From Candidatus Pacearchaeota archaeon (GTDB taxonomy: Archaea > Nanobdellota > Nanobdellia > Pacearchaeales > GW2011-AR1): DNA of 64,000 bases. Shown piece by piece: positions 6,501-61,831 of the stretch; the first letter of the stretch is position 1, and each line of letters starts with the position of its first letter. Both the position numbers and the translations under genes were made by a program. The stretch spans positions 192,817 through 256,816 of the forward strand of contig JBAZYP010000001.1 in NCBI GenBank assembly GCA_041659265.1, read 5' to 3'. The notes beneath the pieces were generated by a model. It was not told the origin of the DNA and did no database searches. It worked only from the letters and a program-made list of their open reading frames with translations.

Positions 6501-7641
6501 GCAATATGGGGTATTAAGAGTTGCACAAGGCGGAAGTAATAGTTTTATTTCTGAAAATATTATTATTGATAGATGTTATATTCATGGAACTCTTGAAGGA
6601 AATATTCGAGATGGATTAATGTTATATCAAGTTAAGGGGTTTGGATTAATTGATTCATATATTAGTGAAATTCATAGTGTTGGATATGAATCTCATCCAA
6701 TTCATATTTATATAACTCCTGGACCAACTAAAATCAAGAATAATTATATTGAGGGTGCTGGAATAAATTTATTTATTGGAGATAATAATGTAAGTATTAT
6801 TCCTGAAGATATTGAAATAATTGGGAATTATTTTTATAAACCTTTAACTTGGATGATAGGTCATTCTACATATGCTGGAATAAATTGGCTTGTAAAAAAT
6901 CTTTTTGAAATTAAAGCAGGTAGAAGAATATTAGTAAAAGGGAATATTTTTGAAAATGTATGGATACATGCACAACATGGGCAGGTATTTGTTATAACTC
7001 CAAGAGGTGGGGAAATTGAAGATTTGACTATTACAAATAATGTTGCAAGAAATTTTTATAATGGTGTTAATTTTAATAGTGCTGATGTATCAATAAATAG
7101 ATTATTGTTTAAAGATAATTTATTATATCAAACGAGTTTTAATATTTCTCCAACTATAATTCAACTTGCTGGAACTCCTGGAAAATATAATAATGTAAAT
7201 ATTATTCATAATTCTTTTCTTGCGAATCCCGAACATGGTTGGATTGTTTTTAATGGTGCTAGAGAAAATGAAGTAAATAATTTAAATGTTAAAGATAATA
7301 TTGCTATTCATGGAAATTATGGAATCTTTGGAAATACTTTAGGTGTTGGAATTAGGTCTGTAAATTTTTATTCAAATAATTATAATTTTACTCATAATCT
7401 ATTAATAAATAATCCTTATATAAACATGTATCAGGATAATATTACTATTAAAGGAAGTTATGTTAGATTTAATTCTTCAAATCTAGAAAATGTGGGTTTT
7501 ATTGATTATGCAAATAAAAACTATAGACTTAGTCAAACAAGTCCTTATAAAAATCTTGGAAGTGATGGAAAGGATTTAGGGGCTGATATTAATACTCTTG
7601 AAGAAGTAACTAGATGCGCAAAAGATGGCATGTGTAATTAA
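3547..7641 (+). CDS. Giant membrane-anchored surface protein with two tandem parallel beta-helix-like modules
   Basis: Lys-rich tail plus TM helix (ILAYLAVIAALIIFFRFALLAYLYI), a conserved ecto-domain and a Gly hinge (GGSGSGGGGGGAGGSGGSGG). Cys-rich knots precede each of two modules with PbH1-like turns (GNIFENSW, NNIIKNS, RCYIHS, IDSYISNI). Each module ends GxDGKDLGADI. Confidence 0.8.
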   Translation: MVEIPVINVDLNVDKFKPENLVWGDKYDKKKDKKKIYKILAYLAVIAALIIFFRFALLAYLYIANLPKINSYDANIERIALSEDGKQAYIKLTGGNQKEIESIKFIFRTNESEFIYETTDGIKEITYEDKRFLTYFANPEYEGSYDYSINAIDMGLDNFKGIIKVEVSIKFKDEKTGEVKETKTIDSSKKSDINIVRSGGSGSGGGGGGAGGSGGSGGTSGNEPITTCNPTKTCLNYANLCGSRMSDGCNNILDCSANCKTGEACLGNSCVSSEINLPLTFETPYNLPTGGKTWYVHDTGNININGINLQATINNASLGDVIILDAGVVYYGNFLLPNKSGNGWIYIISSNLSSMPEGDRVGPKDSINMPKILANPEGGSCYTALFTLFEAHNYRLSGIEILTEGCVYSLVRMGYDIKGGIWNSTPAKTIEQLPYNITLDRCYIHSINDSVRSRIGVIADGRYIAIIDSYISNIKDSADAQAILNWNGLGPFKYVNNFLESSGENFMPGGNDPAIIGLVPSDFEIRGNYFFKPLYWKENHSSYRGYNWGIKNLFEIKNAKRLLVSGNIFENSWIDAQMGYAIVLKASNDGGNANWSTFTDMIFQDNIIKNSVSGIMFSANEHYNGGTTEGIKRVIIKNNLIDFTNSNNNLLSEFNTDFLVSFRGGGVIARDIIVDHNTMLSQNNSKSMITAGDSSNQYENVRITNNILRKGYYGFKASSTAEGNNSVNYITNCSFRKNLMIENINLGIYPSNNLGVNDMGGVGFVDFINKNYRLTSLSLGKNRGTDGKDLGADIDSIEYATRCTLDGKCHTQCVPQCANKECGSDGCYGTCGSCGNGEFCNSNGQCENNIVNELEPELPRFYVDTSYDESYNRPADIIVRSGENLQAALDSVQSGQILEIEAGASFMGNYVIRNKTGNDWIYIRSSRYSELPVEGNRVNSNDSDKMARIICPNQFNPALKIDPGVKNVRLIGLDITTNYSLRNDAQYGVLRVAQGGSNSFISENIIIDRCYIHGTLEGNIRDGLMLYQVKGFGLIDSYISEIHSVGYESHPIHIYITPGPTKIKNNYIEGAGINLFIGDNNVSIIPEDIEIIGNYFYKPLTWMIGHSTYAGINWLVKNLFEIKAGRRILVKGNIFENVWIHAQHGQVFVITPRGGEIEDLTITNNVARNFYNGVNFNSADVSINRLLFKDNLLYQTSFNISPTIIQLAGTPGKYNNVNIIHNSFLANPEHGWIVFNGARENEVNNLNVKDNIAIHGNYGIFGNTLGVGIRSVNFYSNNYNFTHNLLINNPYINMYQDNITIKGSYVRFNSSNLENVGFIDYANKNYRLSQTSPYKNLGSDGKDLGADINTLEEVTRCAKDGMCN

Positions 7642-7743
7642 GTAATTTTAAAATCTTTTTTAATAATAGAAACAATTTATTTAAATTGTATTATCTTTTC
7701 AATAATCTTATTAAGTCTTAATCTTTTATAAAATTGAAAAAAG

Positions 7744-10700
7744 ATGGTTGAAATTCCGATAATTAATATAGAAGTTCCTAAACCTGAGAATCTGGTTTGG
7801 GGAGAAAATTATTCTGAAAAGAAAGATAAGAATAAAATTTATAAAATTTTAGCTTATCTAGCAGTTATAGCTGCATTAATCATATTCTTTAGATTTGCAT
7901 TACTTGCTTATTTGTATATTGCTAATTTACCAAAAATAAATAGTTACGATGCAAATATAGAAAGGATTGCATTAACTGATGATGGAAAACAAGCTTTTAT
8001 TAAATTAACGGGTGGAAATCAAAAAGAGATTGAATCTATTAAATTTATATTTAGGACAAATGAATCAGAATATATTTATGAAACTAAAGATGGAATAAAA
8101 GAAATAACCTATGAAGATAAACGTCTCTTAAGTTATTTTGCTCATCCGGAATATGAAGGAAGTTATGATTATACAATTAAAGCTTTAGATGTTGGACTTG
8201 ATAGTTTTAAGAGAATAATAAAAGTTGAAGTTTTGATAAAATATAAAGATGAAAAAAGTGGAGAGATAAAAGAAACAAAGATTGTTGATAGTACAAAAAA
8301 ATCAGATATTAATGTTGTAAGAAGTGGTGGATATGGTGGAGGAGGTGGAGGATCTGGTGGTAGTGGAGGATCTGGAGGAACAAGTGGAAATGAACCTATT
8401 ACAACATGCAATCCAACTAAAACTTGTTTAAATTATGCTAATCTGTGCGGATCTAGAATGAGTGATGGATGTAATAATATTTTAGATTGTTCTGCTAATT
8501 GCAAATCTGGAGAAAAATGTTTAAGTGGTTCTTGTGTATCGAATGAAATTGAACTTCCTGAAACTTTTGAAGTTCCATATATATTACCTGCTGGTGGAAA
8601 AACCTGGTATATTAATGATAGTGGAAATATTAATACCAATGGAGTTAATTTTCAGAATGCTCTTGTTAATGCAAGTTTAGGTGATGTAATTGTTTTACAA
8701 GCAGGTGTAACTTATTATGGGAATTTTAGGTTACCAAATAAAACTGGAAATGGTTGGTTATATATTATTTCTTCGGAACTAGGAAACTTGCAAGAAGGAA
8801 ATAGGGTAGATTCAAAGGATTCTATTCATATGCCTAAAATTAGTGCATATCCTGATGGAACAAATTGTTATACTGCAATGATAAATGAATGGGGAGCCCA
8901 TAATTATAGGTTTTCAGGAATTGAATTTGTAACAGATGGATGTGTATATAATTTAATTTTACTTGGATATCATTATTTTAGGTTAAATGAACCTATTTGG
9001 AATATTACTGGACCGGGTCATGTTGCTGATACAATTGAAAAATTGCCTTATAATATTACTTTTGATAGATGTTATTTGCATTCTACAAATGAAAGCGCAA
9101 AATCAAGAACGGGTATAATGCTTGATGGTAGATATATGGCTGTTATTGATTCCTATTTGTCAAATTTTAAGGATAGAAGTGATTCTCAAGCAATAAATGT
9201 TTATAGTGGTCCTGGACCTTATAAAATTGTCAATAATTATCTAGAATCAACTGGTGAAAATTTTATGTCTGGTGGAACTGATCCAAACATTTTAAATTCT
9301 GTTCCATCTGATTTTGAAATTATTGGAAATTATTTTTATAAGCCGGATAAATGGAATTCGAATAGTCCTGAATATAAAAACATAAGCTGGTGTATTAAAA
9401 ATTTGTTTGAACTTAAAAATGCACAAAGATTAATTGTTTCAGGAAATATATTTGAAAATAATTGGGGAATTTGTGGTGGACAAAGAGCAACTGCAATTGT
9501 AATAACTCCTAGAAATCAAAATGGCATGGCAAATTGGTCAGTTGTTCAAGATTTAATTTTTACAAATAATATAATTAGAAATTTTGGTTATGCTATGCGA
9601 GTTTTAAGTAATGATGATCTTCATAAATCTGAAATTACAAAAAGAATTGAAATAAATAATAATATTTTTGATGTTATTAATCATAATTATTATACTGGAT
9701 ATGGAATTGGATTTTCTTCTCCTTATAATAATACTCCATCTTATAATGTAGTTGTAAAAAATAATATATTTTTACATAATTATACTGGTGGAAGTTTTAT
9801 GTATGTTGGATTTGATCCATTAAAAATTACTCATTATTCGGTTCTTGATAATTTTACATATGAAAATAATATTGCAACACATGCAAATTATGGATTATTT
9901 GGAGATAATATTGGTACTGGAAATGATGCGATAAATCATTATGTTGATAATTATATTTTTAGAAGAAATTTATTAATTAATCGTCCAATTGATAGAACTT
10001 ATTCTTATTGGATAACGCATTTCTCAAGTTCATATCCTCCTGATAATTTAATGGTTCATAATATAAGTGAGGTAGGTTTTATGGATTATAATAATCAAAA
10101 TTATAGGCTTTTATCAATAAGCCCTGGAAAAAATAATGGAACTGATGGGAAAGATATTGGACCTAATTATGATACCATTGATGAAGCAACAAGATGCACA
10201 CTTGATGGTCAGTGTTATATGCAATGTTTTCCTAATTGTTCGGGAAAGGCTTGTGGTAATGATGGATGTAGTGGAAGTTGTGGAGTATGCAATAATGGAG
10301 AAAGTTGTATAGATTATAATTGTGAAATAAATTCTAGTAATTCAGATAAGATATGGTTTTTCGATTCATTCGAAGGAATGCTTCCAAAGGCTTGGAATTC
10401 TTCTATATGGGGTGAAGCATGGGACAATGATTCGGTTATCAATGTAAATAGTGAAATAGATTCATTAGGAAATTCTATAGGTGCTGCACTTAGCGGGGGA
10501 AATCAATCTTATAGGCAATGGTGGAATGGGCAAAATGATATTGGTAGTTGGTCAACTGCTGGCGGATTATATTCAGATTTTTCAAGAATTACTCAAATGC
10601 CTGATAAACTTGGAGAAAATGATACATTTTATTTAAGTTATCATATTAAATATGATCCTCAATTTTTTTGGGGAGATACAACCGGGTTAAAACAGATTAT

Positions 10701-18722: not shown

Positions 18723-19094
18723 ATGAGTTTAGAATTGGTTATTGAAAAGAAAGAAGAAAGTGAAAAAAGATTTCTTAATGTTTGGGTTAATCCTACTAAT
18801 AAATTGATTAGAATTGAAAATAATGAATTTAATACAGGTAGATATCTTACATTATATTCTAATGAAATAAATTCTCAAAATCCTTTATTAGTTTTTAATT
18901 ATCTAAAGAAATATTCTATAGATGGTTTATATTTAGCTAAATTAATTGAAGATGATGATTCTTTATTTGTTGAAAAACGTGAAAATTTAACACAAGGAAA
19001 TATTTTTTATTTGGAATTATATTTTCCAAAATCAAGTCTAATTACTTTAACTAATAATTCACTTTATTTTGGGTTATTATCTAGAAAGGGCTAA
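18723..19094 (+). CDS. Hypothetical protein
   Basis: A 123-aa ORF whose 3' end overlaps the convergent 19077-19907 gene by 18 nt. Confidence 0.35.
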   Translation: MSLELVIEKKEESEKRFLNVWVNPTNKLIRIENNEFNTGRYLTLYSNEINSQNPLLVFNYLKKYSIDGLYLAKLIEDDDSLFVEKRENLTQGNIFYLELYFPKSSLITLTNNSLYFGLLSRKG

Positions 19095-19907
19095 ATTTTG
19101 TTTAATTTTTTCTCTAACAATTTCTTCATCTTCTGGGTTAGTTACGCCCAACCAATCTTCTTCAGATTTATAGAGTTTTATTTTAATTTTATTTTCTTTT
19201 ATTAAATTTGATAATTCATTAGGTAAAAGAAATTCTATTTTTCTATCTCCTTTATTATTTATTTTGAATTCTTGAAGTTTTTTTTCAATTAAATCTATAG
19301 TTTTTGGATGAAGAGCAAATATATTCATACTGCATAAATCATCTTTAGATAATCCTCTTTTATCAATTTCAGATTTTTCAATATTTAATGTTTCAATTAA
19401 TTCTAAAACATTATTTTTATCATCAACTTTGAAAATTGCTCTATGTGTTTTTCCTGTATCTGGAATTACATCATATAATCTAAAACCGAGTGTTGCTTCT
19501 TCTTTACTTTCTTGAAGATGTTCATATAATTTTTTATAAGATTTTTCTCCATAAATATCATCTCCATTGCAAATAACAAAGGGAGTATCTAAAAATTCTT
19601 TTGCAGAACAAAGGGCGTCTCCTGTTCCCCATGGTCCGTCTCTAGAATCTGTATCAAATGTTTGAAGAGCATATTTAATTGGGATTCCTTGGTAATTATC
19701 TTTAAATTTTTCTTTTATTGAATCTTTTGTAGCATTACCAACAATAAGAACAATTTTAGAAAATCCAGATTTTAAAGCTTGATCTAAAGAATATTCAAGC
19801 AATGTTTCATTTGATGGACCAATTTTAGCAAGAGCTTTAATTTTTCCATTAAATCTTTTTGACATCCCTGCAACCATATAACAAAGGGTTATATCTTTAT
19901 TATCCAT
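19077..19907 (-). CDS. Sugar-phosphate nucleotidyltransferase family protein
   Basis: N-terminal 'CYMVAGMSKRFNGKIK' (G-x-G-x-R-like), then 'GPWGTGDAL' and 'ICNGDDIY'. Confidence 0.6.
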   Translation of the reverse strand: MDNKDITLCYMVAGMSKRFNGKIKALAKIGPSNETLLEYSLDQALKSGFSKIVLIVGNATKDSIKEKFKDNYQGIPIKYALQTFDTDSRDGPWGTGDALCSAKEFLDTPFVICNGDDIYGEKSYKKLYEHLQESKEEATLGFRLYDVIPDTGKTHRAIFKVDDKNNVLELIETLNIEKSEIDKRGLSKDDLCSMNIFALHPKTIDLIEKKLQEFKINNKGDRKIEFLLPNELSNLIKENKIKIKLYKSEEDWLGVTNPEDEEIVREKIKQNLALSR

Positions 19908-19949
19908 TTTAGAAAATATGATTAATTAGTATATAAAATTAATCAATAT

Positions 19950-20081
19950 AGGGCTTTGTCCGGAATTTTCTAGATTCCGAACAAGTTAAACATAAATATT
20001 TGGAATCACTAATTTTTTCAGGAGTAAATCCCGAAAAAATTAGACATTTTTTAAACTGAAAACTAAACTCCGGACAGAGCA
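19950..20081 (+). repeat. Copy E1 of a structured intergenic element family (MITE-like or sRNA)
   Basis: The termini GCTTTGTCCGGA and TCCGGACAGAGC are complementary. Hairpin 19954-19966/19974-19985. Hairpin 20011-20022/20030-20041 has loop AGTAAAT. CAATAT flanks both ends (19944-19949 and 20082-20087). Confidence 0.7.
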
Positions 20082-20202
20082 CAATATCATGCTTTGTAAA
20101 GAATTTCTATATTCTTTTAACTAGGATGCTATTATTAAGATTTAACTAAAAATAAATTAAGATTTGTCCGAACCGAAGGAGTTCTTAATATAGGATATAA
20201 AT

Positions 20203-22812
20203 TTAGTCAGCTGATTCTGCTTTAATTGCTTTTGGTGCTTCACCACCATGCCAAGTAAAACGAGGCCTTATTCTTATTGGATATAATCTTTCAGAATTAT
20301 CATCTAATAAAATGGCACTTCCTTTTAAATCTGGAAGATTGTTCATTGATTTTGAAATTCCTTCTAATAAATAACTCTGCATCATTGTATTAAGTGCAAT
20401 AAGGTCGTCTTTGTTAGTTAATCTATGGGAGATAACTATATCTGACTGAGTCATAACATCCCTATGAATCACTCCTGGTTGTTGGGTTGCTAAAACCATT
20501 GAAATTCCTGGTTGCCTTCCTTCTCTAAGTAATTGGATTAAGGCATTTGTAGCAGGAGTTTTTTCATGCATTGGCAAGAATTCATGGGCTTCATCTAAAA
20601 AAAGCCAGACAAGAGGCATTTCTTTTTTTTCTTCATAAGAGGAATTTATTCCATGATGAATTGATTCTATTTCTTCTTTTTTTCTAGCAAGAATTCTTTG
20701 GTCAAATAATTTTTTTGAAACAAGACCAATTATTAATCCTCTTACATTAAATTTTGCTGTAGATGAATAACATGAAAGATCTAGAACTGTTGTTTTACCT
20801 GCTGTTATTAAATCATCAATTTTTGTACCTTCTTCACCTGAACTAGCAAATACTTTCCAGGATTTAGCGGCTTGAAAAAGTGCCATAGCTGATTTTTTGT
20901 TTTCATCATTTGTATCCTTGTCTTCTCTTATCATATTAATTATATCATCTAAATCAAATATTCCTTTTTTTGCAAGATTATCAATTGTTTTTTGAATTAA
21001 AACTGATACAGGAGAGATCATTTCAAGTTCAAATATGGATAACCAATCTTCTATTGAAAGTTCGGCTGCACTTAATGCAAATTTCTTGTCAACAGGAATA
21101 TCTCTTTTTTCATATTCATGAAAATAACCAGCTGGTGCCCAAACTGTAACTGGAAGATTTTGGGTCTTTAAATCCCAGCCTTCTAATAAATCTGATTCTT
21201 TTTCATTTCTATATTTCATTGTCCAGAATATACCCATAGTATCAAAAATTATTGGGGCTATATTTTTTCTTGCTTCTTCTGGAAGATTTGATAATTCTTC
21301 AGCCAAGACTCCTATTGTGTAACTATTATGCACAATAATATTATTTGCTACAAAATTATGGTTTTCAGGAACGCAAATATCATAGACCTTAAAATTTCCT
21401 TCTAAAGATTCCATTGAGATTATTTCATCCCAATAAATATCGGATTCTGCAAGAAGTTTTAGTGGGTTATTTCTTTCAATTTCTGCTATTTGAAGTAAAT
21501 TTTGTCTTGAAGGAGAATAACGAATCCTTTCTCTTATCGATTTAGGATATTTATATCCAATAGCTCTACCAATTTCTGCCCAGTTATTTGGTTTAAAGGT
21601 TTCCCATATTTCTTTTGGAATAGTATCGAGATTCGGATTTCTTATTTTTGATAAAATATCTGATTTAGCAATAAAAACTTTTTCTTGTTTTTTCCCGAAA
21701 AAGCCTATTTCTTCTATAAATTTTACAACATTAATTGAATTTAAAACTAATTCATAAGATGTGAATTTTTTCATTTTAATCTTAATATTCTTTGTTCTTA
21801 ATTTTGATAAAATTCCGAATCTTAATAATAAATTTTGGATTTGTTTTATTAGTTTTTTTGAAGATGATGAATAAGAAATCTGCCATTTATTTTCTGAAGA
21901 ATAAATACTTCCATCACAACTAAATAAACGGTTTAAAAATAAAGCTAATAATTCTTTTTTTAGTCTTAAGATATTTTGGGAAAGTTCTTTTTCAATTGAA
22001 AGTTTTCCAAAGATGCCCTCTCTTTCGATAAGTTTTCTAATACTTCTTTTTTTAACTATATTCTTATTTCCTTTTATAAAATGGCCTTTATCATCTCTTG
22101 ATAAATTTGTTTCAAGGATTTTTGTTTTATATTTCTTTTCAGATATTCTAAAATTGCATTTCCCTTCATTTATTAATTCTAAAGAAGAATCAAAACGATT
22201 CAATGAGTCTTTAAATTCATTAATTATTTTTTCATCATTATTTGAAAATAAGACTACTTTTTTTGTATGTCCTTCAGCAATAAGATATGCTAGTAATTTT
22301 ATTTCATCTTCTGACATTATATTATTCCCAAATGAAGGGATAATTCTTGGAGTAGCAATTCTTGAACCTAATATTAGTTCACTTGCATTTTTCCATCCTT
22401 TTATTGTTAATAGTGGATGTTCTGGAGTAAGTTTTATTTCTTTACCACTTCTTAATTTTATTTTTAAAAGTTTATTAACTTCCCTAGAGAAAAATTCTGT
22501 TTTTTCTGAATTTTGAACTTTAAGTTTATTATTTAAACTAATTATTTTTTCATTATTAAATTCAATATCTTTTATTGGCATAAGGGAACCATCAGACATA
22601 CTTATTAAGGTATCTTCATGAAGACATTTTCCCCCACCTCTTTTACCAGCAATTAATATAACATGAGTTCTAGCAATATCTAGCCAAATTTTATTGGATA
22701 GGGAAGTGTAATTTCCCATAGTAACATAGCCTTTGCCAATATAAACAAGACCTCTGTTGCCAAATTTTTTCTTATCGTATTTATCTCTACCTATTATAAT
22801 ATCATATGGCAT
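20203..22812 (-). CDS. HerA/DUF87-like P-loop ATPase interrupted by an intein
   Basis: Joining the exteins restores Walker A 'GKRGGGK|SYTIG'. Also present are Walker B 'VWLFLDEAHEF' and 'REGRQPGISMVLATQQP'. Confidence 0.8.
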   Translation of the reverse strand: MPYDIIIGRDKYDKKKFGNRGLVYIGKGYVTMGNYTSLSNKIWLDIARTHVILIAGKRGGGKCLHEDTLISMSDGSLMPIKDIEFNNEKIISLNNKLKVQNSEKTEFFSREVNKLLKIKLRSGKEIKLTPEHPLLTIKGWKNASELILGSRIATPRIIPSFGNNIMSEDEIKLLAYLIAEGHTKKVVLFSNNDEKIINEFKDSLNRFDSSLELINEGKCNFRISEKKYKTKILETNLSRDDKGHFIKGNKNIVKKRSIRKLIEREGIFGKLSIEKELSQNILRLKKELLALFLNRLFSCDGSIYSSENKWQISYSSSSKKLIKQIQNLLLRFGILSKLRTKNIKIKMKKFTSYELVLNSINVVKFIEEIGFFGKKQEKVFIAKSDILSKIRNPNLDTIPKEIWETFKPNNWAEIGRAIGYKYPKSIRERIRYSPSRQNLLQIAEIERNNPLKLLAESDIYWDEIISMESLEGNFKVYDICVPENHNFVANNIIVHNSYTIGVLAEELSNLPEEARKNIAPIIFDTMGIFWTMKYRNEKESDLLEGWDLKTQNLPVTVWAPAGYFHEYEKRDIPVDKKFALSAAELSIEDWLSIFELEMISPVSVLIQKTIDNLAKKGIFDLDDIINMIREDKDTNDENKKSAMALFQAAKSWKVFASSGEEGTKIDDLITAGKTTVLDLSCYSSTAKFNVRGLIIGLVSKKLFDQRILARKKEEIESIHHGINSSYEEKKEMPLVWLFLDEAHEFLPMHEKTPATNALIQLLREGRQPGISMVLATQQPGVIHRDVMTQSDIVISHRLTNKDDLIALNTMMQSYLLEGISKSMNNLPDLKGSAILLDDNSERLYPIRIRPRFTWHGGEAPKAIKAESAD
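21325..22626 (-). mobile_element. 434-aa intein with LAGLIDADG homing-endonuclease domain, inserted in the Walker A loop
   Basis: It starts at Cys63 ('CLHEDTLISM', codon 22626-22624) and ends 'NIIVHN' (Asn496, 21327-21325), followed by the +1 Ser. The endonuclease blocks are 'LLAYLIAEGH' and 'LNRLFSCDGSI'. The boundary codons were checked on the sequence. Confidence 0.85.
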
Positions 22813-22897
22813 TCTTTAGAAATTACCTCTTTCATATATAATAGGGTATTTATCTGTTTTTAATGTTTTTGATAGAATTTAAACCAATAATCTTTAA

Positions 22898-23031
22898 TGA
22901 TTTGTCCAAATTTCAATGAAATTTGGCCAGTTTCGTACTAAATGTACGAAGAATGCTTTTTTTTCTAAAGAGTAAATCTTTAGAAAAAAAGTTGTAAACT
23001 AAATTATAAATATAAACTCTTGAACAGAGCT
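22898..23031 (+). repeat. Copy E2 of the structured intergenic element family
   Basis: Same layout as E1. Hairpin 22906-22913/22919-22926. Hairpin 22957-22970/22978-22990 has the identical AGTAAAT loop. The 3' end is GAACAGAGC. ATCTTTAA flanks both ends (22890-22897 and 23032-23039). Confidence 0.7.
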
Positions 23032-23205
23032 ATCTTTAAAATAATTAGATATAACTTTTAAATAAATGTATATAAATAGTAGAGATATTCGTATTATTTA
23101 GTAGAATTTTATGAAGTTCAATTTATTTAATTATTAATATTTATATTTGATAAAATCTAAAAATTATCTGTTAAATATTAAATTTTTTTGAATAGAGTTG
23201 AAATT

Positions 23206-53424: not shown

Positions 53425-53497
53425 AGCCACAGTCGAGGATCGAACTCGAGACCTTTACATTACCAATGTAACGCTCTACCAACTGAGCTACTGCGGC
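53425..53497 (-). tRNA. tRNA-Thr (anticodon GGU)
   Basis: Reverse-complement fold: acceptor GCCGCAG/CTGTGGC, D arm GCTC-AGTTGGTA-GAGC, anticodon arm TTACA-TTGGTAA-TGTAA, T arm TCGAG-TTCGATC-CTCGA, discriminator T. Confidence 0.85.
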
Positions 53498-53540
53498 ATG
53501 TAAATTAAAGAAATATGTGGCTTAAAAAGATTTGTAAATA

Positions 53541-53643
53541 CCTGCTTTGTTCGAGAAGTTTAATCAATTTCGAACAAGAACGCAATGACTAATACGTAAT
53601 CAATCTAGCTAAATTAAAATTATGTTCAATCCTGACAAGAGCA
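53541..53643 (+). repeat. Copy E3 (short form) of the structured intergenic element family
   Basis: GCTTTGTTCGAGAAGTTTAATCAATTTCGAACAAGAACGC...CCTGACAAGAGC. TAAATA flanks both ends (53535-53540 and 53644-53649). It lies 44 nt from the tRNA-Thr 5' end. Confidence 0.6.
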
Positions 53644-53880
53644 TAAATATTATTAAGAATTAATTAAAATTATAAAAGAAAAAAAAATAAAATTAATTCT
53701 TGCTTTTTTTCTTTTTTATAAGGTAGTAATAATAATGGTATAGATAATAAAGGGGAAAAGGTAGCTAAGATAATATATATGATCTTTAAAGATCATGGCT
53801 ATACTTTATTAATAACTGTTCCTTATCTTAAAGATGTTCTTTTTAGGGTTTTTCAAGATTTTTATAAAATCTTAATATAT

Positions 53881-60847: not shown

Positions 60848-61536
60848 GTGCCTATAATTGTTCCCTCAAAATGTTTTTCATTTAAAAGGTTATCTAAATT
60901 GTTAGCATTTGAACTGATTATACATGTCTTTATTTGATTCTTTTTTATTATTTTTGCAGCTTTAATATCTAAAACAAAATGTTGTCCTAATTCAAATTTC
61001 TTTTTTTTAATTAAATCTAAAAATTTTTCATAAGAAATCTCGTGTATGAATTTTGCATTCTTAAATTTTTTTGGATCTTTATCATATAATCCTTTTACAT
61101 CGGTTATGTTGATGAAGGTAGTTTTAAAATGATTTGCAAGTCTTGCTGCTACTGCATCAGAGGTTTCATTTTTTGTATATCTTAAGGCTCCACAAAAGAT
61201 TATATTATGGATTTTAAGAAGATTTTCTATATCTTTCATATCGTTTGGAATTCCCTTATTTGACTCTTTCCCAAAGAAATATGTCATAAATCTTGAATTA
61301 AATCTGGTTGAAGCTATACCTAGAAGAGATTGAAGATATTTTTTCTTTTTTATTTGTTGATTTTCTAATCCATTAATATAAACTCTAGCAGTTTTTCCTC
61401 CGCCGCAAACAATAACAAACTTATATTTATTAACATTTTTTTTAATAATTTTTTTAAATTCTTCTAAGTTTTTTTCATTTATTTTATCAGGTACTATTAC
61501 ACTTCCACCAAGACTAATTACTATCACCTTTTTCAT
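60844..61536 (-). CDS. pyrH: Amino-acid-kinase-fold UMP kinase (archaeal PyrH-like)
   Basis: 'VIVISLGGSVI', 'VIVCGGGKTARVYI', 'SDAVAARLA', 'DVKGLYDKDP'. Confidence 0.65.
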   Translation of the reverse strand: MKKVIVISLGGSVIVPDKINEKNLEEFKKIIKKNVNKYKFVIVCGGGKTARVYINGLENQQIKKKKYLQSLLGIASTRFNSRFMTYFFGKESNKGIPNDMKDIENLLKIHNIIFCGALRYTKNETSDAVAARLANHFKTTFINITDVKGLYDKDPKKFKNAKFIHEISYEKFLDLIKKKKFELGQHFVLDIKAAKIIKKNQIKTCIISSNANNLDNLLNEKHFEGTIIGT

Positions 61537-61577
61537 ATTTATAATTATTCAAATCTTTATATAAATCTTATTAAATT

Positions 61578-61681
61578 AATGGCTTTGTTAGAGAAGTTCA
61601 ATGAGCTTTAAACAAGAAAGCTACTATTAATATTTAATAAGATTAATTAAAAAAAATCAGGTTTAATCTTTGAGAAGAGCC
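61578..61681 (+). repeat. Copy E4 (short form) of the structured intergenic element family
   Basis: GGCTTTGTTAGAGAAGTTCAATGAGCTTTAAACAAGAAAGC...CTTTGAGAAGAGCC. The first ~40 nt align closely with E3. TAAATT flanks both ends (61572-61577 and 61682-61687). Confidence 0.6.
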
Positions 61682-61831
61682 TAAATTTATAGATAAAATA
61701 AAAATGGCATATTGATAATTAGCTAGATTTTATGTATGGATAAGATGAAGATAGACTTTTATTTTTTTAGTGAATTAATTTAGAAATAATTTTTTTAATT
61801 ATAATTGGAAGGTTCATTAAAGTGATGAAAT

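Follow-up and report, generated by a model that had tools for sequence, protein, structure and literature searches.

Prokaryotic MITEs derived from IS5-family elements, such as those related to IS1106 in Neisseria and those of Sulfolobus and haloarchaea, are short, non-coding, intergenic sequences present in many copies; their inverted repeats match those of a DDE insertion sequence (IS), they are flanked by duplications of fixed length, and they have the potential to form hairpins. Duplications of 8 bp are made, for instance, by the ISH1 group. In a census of 8220 archaeal genomes, a Woesearchaeal genome was found to contain MITEs at very high density (PMC11602168), and the termini of IS903B have been described as GGCTTTGTTGAA (GGCTTTGTTGAATAAATC), with a 9-bp duplication (PMC10569121). 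Mobile DNA in the reduced genomes of DPANN archaea is poorly catalogued, and no description of the family presented here, or of its IS, was found in the searchable literature. MITEs as a class are known; what is new is this family and its IS in DPANN archaea, i.e., a new and not surprising member, which does not challenge the current understanding of transposons.

The window, that is the whole 64-kb stretch of DNA analysed here, has a G+C content of 26% (A+T 74%) and encodes archaeal-type proteins, namely FEN1, both PheRS subunits, a DUF357 protein and an intein-bearing ATPase. The PheRS alpha subunit finds its best identity, 75%, in Candidatus Pacearchaeota genomes, and the host is therefore a DPANN archaeon. 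Four short elements of this window, hereafter E1 to E4, are very probably copies of a MITE family of DPANN archaea (Pacearchaeota and Woesearchaeota) that would have depended for their transposase on an IS5-family IS of about 1 kb. This was one of the two readings offered in the original prediction, and it is strongly supported by 8-bp duplications, by the presence of the same ends elsewhere and by a partner IS5-family IS. Away from the elements, the + strand of the window carries, between 2201 and 11136, two ORFs with FHA domains, followed by an ORF of 140 aa and two very large ones (1364 and 1130 aa); these last three have no match in Pfam.

Four intergenic elements, their flanks and their neighbours

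All four copies are present where they had been placed, on the + strand and between genes. E1 is a MITE copy of 130 nt (19952-20081, ends G-GCTTTGTCCGGA... and ...TCCGGACAGAGC-A), and E2 is a copy of 134 nt with degenerate ends (22898-23031, T-GATTTGTCCAAA... and ...TTGAACAGAGC-T). E3 (53543-53643, ends T-GCTTTGTTCGAG... and ...CCTGACAAGAGC-A) and E4 (61580-61681, ends TG-GCTTTGTTAGAG... and ...GAGAAGAGC-C) are decayed copies of a shorter subtype. With a size of 101-134 nt and a location outside every ORF of at least 80 aa, the elements are short and non-coding, as MITEs are. A search of the window for G[CA]TTTGT...AGAGC with a spacing of 50-200 nt returns E1 to E4 as its sole intergenic matches. 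The common ends that had been proposed hold for the GCTTTGT start of E1, E3 and E4 and for the AGAGC end of all four, but E2 starts with GATTTGT. The termini of E1 can indeed pair, over their full 12 nt and with a single T.G pair that corresponds to a T/C difference; terminal inverted repeats thus measure 12 nt in E1, are degenerate yet recognisable in E2 to E4, and reach 12-16 nt in the wider family. The end motif and the duplications are what places E2 to E4 in the family. Over their first 40 nt E3 and E4 had been called nearly identical, which overstates an actual identity of about 80%, and the fetched data contain no close relatives of either.

Just downstream of E1 and on the same (+) strand, two fragments are tentatively seen as solo left ends. 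One (20091-20121) consists of GCTTTGT followed by a short hairpin (GCTTTGTAAAGAAT...ATTCTTTTAAC), and the other (20161-20183) is GATTTGTCCGAACCGAAGG, with one mismatch to GCTYTGTYCRRA. No right ends matching these fragments were found; older insertions may have left them behind. Position 20183 is where a Logan contig of the window's own strain breaks.

Direct repeats had been noted on both sides of each element; they are real, and better than first claimed. They become 8-mers once one terminal nucleotide is added at each end of the element. Read in this register (N-GCTTTGT...AGAGC-N, i.e., one nucleotide, then eight), E1 is bordered by CAATATAG (19944-19951) and CAATATCA (20082-20089), which agree at 6 of 8 positions, and E2 by two identical copies of ATCTTTAA (22890-22897 and 23032-23039, 8/8). 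The target-site duplications of E3, TAAATACC (53535-53542) and TAAATATT (53644-53651), agree at 6 positions out of 8, and those of E4, TAAATTAA (61572-61579, after which comes a left spacer of 2 nt) and TAAATTTA (61682-61689), at 7 out of 8. Under the same flexible rules, random positions of the window give a repeat of at least 6 nt in 1.4% of cases and of at least 8 nt in 0.14%, and the joint chance of all four flanking repeats is about 1e-9. The duplications at the four window copies are far beyond chance, and each copy has the flanking duplication of fixed length that is characteristic of MITEs.

TATA-like boxes do exist upstream of the elements, as had been pointed out, but for E1, E3 and E4 they are explained by the divergent neighbour's own promoter. 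The boxes lie 24-31 nt (E1), 23-31 nt (E3) and 20-29 nt (E4) from the divergent start, which is the ATG at 19907, the 5' end of a tRNA-Thr at 53497 and the ATG at 61536, respectively. Such distances are the expected promoter position for a leaderless archaeal gene or a tRNA. The box next to E1 is TATATAAA (19931-19938, - strand), upstream of the divergent gene 19077-19907, and the one next to E4 is TTTATATAAA (61556-61565, - strand), upstream of an amino-acid-kinase gene; relatives that are free of the element retain the TTTAAATA-to-ATG layout. E1, E3 and E4 all begin 45-46 nt from the divergent start (19907-19952, 53497-53543 and 61536-61581), just beyond the TATA box, and either insertions are tolerated only there or promoter-adjacent DNA is targeted.

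The order of the genes for DUF357, amino-acid kinase, RNase P p30-like protein, PheRS alpha and PheRS beta is conserved in Pacearchaeota and Woesearchaeota, where it is seen in loci L001-L037, around 7000-10000. Between the DUF357 and kinase genes lies a spacer of 54 nt to about 1 kb, in which a gene on the opposite strand is often inserted. This spacer, which holds E4, measures 295 nt in the window versus 54 nt, without element, in the distant relatives L012, L013 and L027, whose spacers are too diverged from the window to define a precise empty site. Look-ups of the neighbours of E1 and E4 recovered one strain only, with E4 present and 100% identical in four samples, and among these samples of a single strain none of the four loci was seen as a precise empty site. 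A look-up of the last gene of the window, aimed at a longer contig, returned no record.

E1 and E2 flank a gene (20203-22812, - strand) for an 869-aa P-loop ATPase with Walker A AGKRGGGK and Walker B LFLDEAHEF, HerA/DUF87-like by eye, in which a LAGLIDADG-type intein sits exactly in the Walker A loop. A composite transposon formed by E1, this gene and E2 was ruled out, as each element has its own, different duplication.

The same ends in other genomes and a probable partner insertion sequence

Further copies, a search for which had been proposed, are present beyond the window in DPANN genomes and groundwater metagenomes, with the same 12-nt ends and unrelated flanks. In a set of 80 related genomes, covering 1.2 Mb around PheRS, one element (L020, 965-1060) reads GCTTTGTCCGGA...TCCGGACAGAGC and has GGTCTATCT on both flanks, and a second one (L022, 691-850) reads GCTTTGTAGAAAGT...ACTTTCTACAGAGC and is flanked by TGAAAATTG; the interiors of both are unrelated to that of E1. 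A search of the PheRS loci for full-length elements, as end pairs within 3 kb, returned only noise. Metagenomes were scanned with the 22 specified end bases of the element, which gave 54 loci; 45 of them are low-GC, on groundwater contigs of 27-38% G+C, and the nine high-GC loci look like chance or coding matches. Together with L020 and with L081, which is the window's own E1, the low-GC loci amount to 47 copies at 37 distinct sites, and many of the element matches are located at contig ends. The termini of E1 are those of the MITEs in L020 and on more than 40 metagenome contigs and those of the IS described below.

One element of 96 nt recurs without any change at more than 15 different sites and so has the multiple copies expected of a MITE; further subfamilies of 87, 95, 107-108, 115-116 and 120 nt have only their ends in common. 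In the fixed register, the wider family shows a duplication of 8/8 at 18 of the 34 sites with enough flank, of 7/8 at six and of 6/8 at four. When the left flank of one site was compared with the right flank of another as a control, the maximum was 6/8, reached by 7 of 1122 pairs. Duplications of 9 bp occur at two sites of the wider family. Identical copies at many sites, together with duplications of fixed length, are the signature of recent transposition.

A partner transposase with matching inverted repeats had been suggested as something to look for, and it was found in another genome (L145), in an IS5-family IS. This complete element of about 1 kb (L145, 620-1625) has perfect 14-bp inverted repeats (GCTCTGTCCGGAAT / ATTCCGGACAGAGC) and two overlapping ORFs of 140 and 176 aa which, when joined, give a 309-aa DDE_Tnp_1 transposase (Pfam PF01609, E 7e-18, 65.5 bits versus a cut-off of 23). 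Its best NCBIfam model is transpos_IS5_2 (IS5 family, E 8e-25), with 88 bits for a curated cut-off of 140, and all other IS families score far lower; because it stays below the curated IS5 cut-off, the L145 transposase is a divergent IS5 relative without named subgroup. The IS has no target-site duplication around it and may be defective, with its two frames (frameshift or overlap) and AIGGSG in place of the expected catalytic D. An element that combines the same ends with a transposase, as expected for the autonomous partner of MITEs, is thus available in a genome other than that of the window, and the 64-kb window itself contains no transposase homologue. A scan of viral contigs with the transposase also found nothing.

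Except at the T/C position, the left end of MITE subfamily L115 is that of the L145 IS over about 24 nt. Ends of the IS come in a C-type, GCTCTGT, found at both ends in L145, and in a T-type, ACAAAGC, found at the downstream end in L124; the existence of both types accounts for MITEs that always have one T-end and one C-end, and a wobble pair in an RNA is not needed to explain them. L124 contains a truncated second copy of the transposase, ending ...ACTCCGGACAAAGC, and a lone end ...ATTACTCCGGACAAAGC, at 1822, directly follows the DDE_Tnp_1-type C-terminal frame, which reads through it. A search with this C-terminal fragment returned 19 close homologues, each of them on a short contig broken by repeats, and one led to L145.

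Mobile DNA is nested in L124 (533-1822), where 1.3 kb contain a MITE of 96 nt, the truncated IS5-like copy and an IS6-like gene (zinc ribbon, HTH and DDE_Tnp_IS240) that is frameshifted. In L138 (1-1325), the same IS5-like element is cut by another IS on the opposite strand. L135 (9756-10991, - strand) has an intact ORF of 411 aa with a SWIM zinc finger, a zinc ribbon and a DDE domain (IS240/IS66-like) and no visible terminal inverted repeats, which may be a domesticated or unusual transposase. The L145 IS (520-620) and one MITE (L020, 5700-5800) are found 9-12 nt downstream of a tRNA 3' end, and E3 is located 46 nt upstream of tRNA-Thr; this adjacency may reflect a preference for tRNA- or promoter-proximal DNA.

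Hairpins and rival readings

E1 and E2 fold much better than shuffled sequences (z-scores of -8.5 and -5.95, respectively), whereas E3 and E4, with z about -1, are no better than the shuffles. Two hairpins had been described as maintained between E1 and E2 by compensatory changes, and both exist; the first one is longer than described and competes with the terminal stem, because the conserved TTTGTyC lies within it. The second is as proposed, with 14 pairs and an identical GAGTAAATC loop region, and consists in E1 (20010-20042) of an internal palindrome made of a T-run, a stem, a GTAAA loop, a stem and an A-run, which is homologous to the palindrome with the GTAAA loop in E2 (22958-22990). In this hairpin 27 of 28 cells are paired and five pairs are changed on both sides, a weak statistic with n=2 sequences, since the observed value is reached by 20 of 500 shuffles. 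All changes go from one Watson-Crick pair to another and are therefore without strand information. As for the remaining strand signals in E1, the + strand gives the better terminal stem (T.G), and full pairing of the internal hairpin requires the - strand, where the A.C of the + strand becomes a G.U; these contradictory signals fit a DNA palindrome better than a strand-specific RNA. Of the argument that covariation favours selection on structure, what holds is that one E1/E2 hairpin covaries, with n=2 and no consistent strand signal. The hairpin with the GTAAA loop was sought in all subfamilies and is present in E1 and E2 only, with a weaker, reversed version in L112. Among eight variants of the 96-nt subfamily, the sole consensus structure is the terminal repeat, with zero compensated pairs, and no alignment is possible between the interiors of different subfamilies.

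Many subfamilies contain an internal, inverted and partial copy of the left end (CGAACAAG / GGACAAG), located 15-60 nt inside the element. It is found in E1-E4, L091, L099, L108, L113 and L135, which gives these elements a layout with three repeats and a 5' hairpin whose formation competes with that of the terminal stem; it is absent from the ends of the L145 IS. This internal copy might reflect an architecture in which the transposase recognises three sites.

Palindromes in mobile DNA can persist through processes at the DNA level or through recognition by the transposase or by host proteins, and the five compensated pairs of E1 and E2 leave room for some structural constraint. It is conceivable, though unlikely, that the host has co-opted some of the copies, one candidate being the E1/E2 palindrome with its T-run/A-run stem and invariant GAGTAAATC loop, which might act as a bidirectional terminator, an insulator or a protein-binding hairpin just upstream of the neighbouring promoters. 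Transcription of the elements into small RNAs, from the bidirectional TATA boxes of their neighbours, might be an alternative.

The second reading of the original prediction, according to which the elements are independently transcribed, structured small RNAs, each with its own TATA-box promoter and with a terminal stem formed by the conserved 5' and 3' ends, does not hold up and has to be considered highly improbable. It would account for the folding of E1 and E2, for a hairpin that keeps 14 pairs and an identical loop through five double changes, for a T.G pair of the terminal stem that works on the + strand only, and for AT-rich TATA-like boxes upstream of the elements. However, the E1, E3 and E4 boxes occupy the promoter position of the divergent neighbour, the orthologous spacer is free of the element in relatives, and E3 and E4 fold no better than shuffled sequences. 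The terminal repeat is all that is kept in the eight 96-nt variants, so that no internal structure is conserved, and the two stems of E1 point to opposite strands. No known RNA family had been recognised, and this is confirmed by the lack of any Rfam match in the window at gathering thresholds and, for E1, even at E<10. Finally, target-site duplications and the occurrence of one identical element at many unrelated sites are expected of transposition and not of RNA genes. That nothing real is present, and that E1 to E4 are a chance similarity of AT-rich intergenic DNA, has practically no probability left. Short repeats and hairpins are common in a genome with 74% A+T, and E3 and E4 are weakly structured; against this, the four flanking repeats have the joint chance given above, the exact end pattern of E1 (22 bases) does not occur in any of 100 shuffles of the window, and ends and duplications recur in many other genomes. 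The chance reading is already refuted.

Even as MITEs, the elements could have been mobilised by another transposase. IS6-family ends are GGCTCTGTTGCAAA and the duplication is 8 bp, so that an IS6/IS26-family transposase would go with the 8-bp duplications and the GGCTCTGT-type ends seen here, and in L124 a DDE_Tnp_IS240 (IS6-like) gene adjoins a MITE and a lone element end. This gene carries, however, a frameshift, lacks matching ends of its own and disrupts the other element, and the lone end at 1822 follows an IS5-like DDE_Tnp_1 C-terminus whose frame runs into the repeat. As the complete L145 element, with its perfect matching repeats, also encodes DDE_Tnp_1 and not IS240, mobilisation by an IS6/IS26-family transposase is extremely unlikely.

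Several other candidates were tried and rejected. A tRNA-like molecule or an intron-containing tRNA, suggested by a 7-bp 'acceptor' (GCTTTGT/ACAGAGC), does not fit at the positions of the D- and T-arms, and ARAGORN and Rfam detect only three ordinary tRNAs. A likeness to 5S rRNA seen by eye (CCGAAC...AAGTTAA) has no RF00001 match at E<10, and four unlike copies of a divergent 5S rRNA are implausible. Box motifs of C/D or H/ACA guide RNAs are not visible by eye. Integron attC sites were discarded as well, the ends being GCTTTGT...ACAGAGC and not RYYYAAC...GTTRRRY core sites, and the copies being scattered, each with its own duplication, unlike cassette arrays next to an integrase.

Proposed mobilisation and comparison with known elements

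For the MITE family, the terminal inverted repeats, which are 12-14 bp long and read N-GCTYTGTCCGGA in the copies preserved best, would be the sites bound and cleaved by a DDE transposase, supplied in trans by the IS5-family IS of about 1 kb with the same ends. The enzyme would cut the target with an 8-bp stagger, occasionally of 9 bp, and repair of the gaps would leave direct repeats on both flanks; the terminal stem and the internal hairpins would then follow from the palindromic layout of the DNA. We infer that transposases of the L145 type mobilised the window copies and, taking IS903 and other IS5-family elements as the model, that the chemistry is of the cut-and-paste type. A related but different transposase may have moved E3 and E4, since their ends are closer to the IS903B/ISHvo2 type. 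As the window contains no transposase of this kind, and as its copies are diverged, with ends and duplications partly decayed, E1 to E4 are most likely old and immobile insertions in promoter-proximal intergenic DNA.

In place of a candidate new RNA family, DPANN archaea have a documented family of mobile elements together with the transposase that is its likely partner. Repeats that break metagenome assemblies can be masked with the end motif N-GCTYTGTCCGGA and the 8-bp duplication, and the end motif can also serve to trace recent transposition, and possibly gene flow, among populations of Pacearchaeota and Woesearchaeota.

Compared with the IS5-derived MITEs of other prokaryotes, to which it is alike in the properties listed at the outset, the family differs by its GCTYTGTCCGGA ends, its 8-bp duplication, its subfamilies of 87-160 nt and its DPANN host, as well as by subfamilies that are alike at their ends only and that in many cases carry an internal inverted copy of the left end. 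IS6/IS26 elements also have an 8-bp duplication and GGCTCTGT-type ends, but with a DDE_Tnp_IS240 domain instead of the DDE_Tnp_1 domain encoded by the element with matching ends here. The nearest annotated relatives of the L145 transposase are haloarchaeal IS5-family proteins, e.g., that of ISHvo2, with 26-28% identity over 80-90% of the protein, and all 50 of 50 such matches are on haloarchaeal plasmids. The left end of ISHvo2, GGCTCTGTTGAAAT, which is the only end compared, has GGCTCTGT in common with the DPANN IS; ISHvo2 differs by this low identity, by its host lineage and by repeats that diverge after position 8. The IS903 group of the IS5 family is similar in its DDE transposase, in its long duplication (9 bp in IS903B versus 8-9 bp here, so that both ends and duplication length agree with the IS5 family) and in the start of its repeat, GGCTTTGTTGAA in IS903B compared with GGCTTTGTTAGAG in E4 and TGCTTTGTTCGAG in E3. 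IS903 is nevertheless a bacterial element with a single ORF of about 307 aa and a 9-bp duplication, versus mostly 8 bp here, and the DPANN transposase is only distantly related to it (below the NCBIfam IS5 cut-off). GGCTYTGT, the first eight bases, is common to the DPANN IS, IS903B and the left end of ISHvo2, and the ends of E3 and E4 are even closer to this IS903B/ISHvo2 type.
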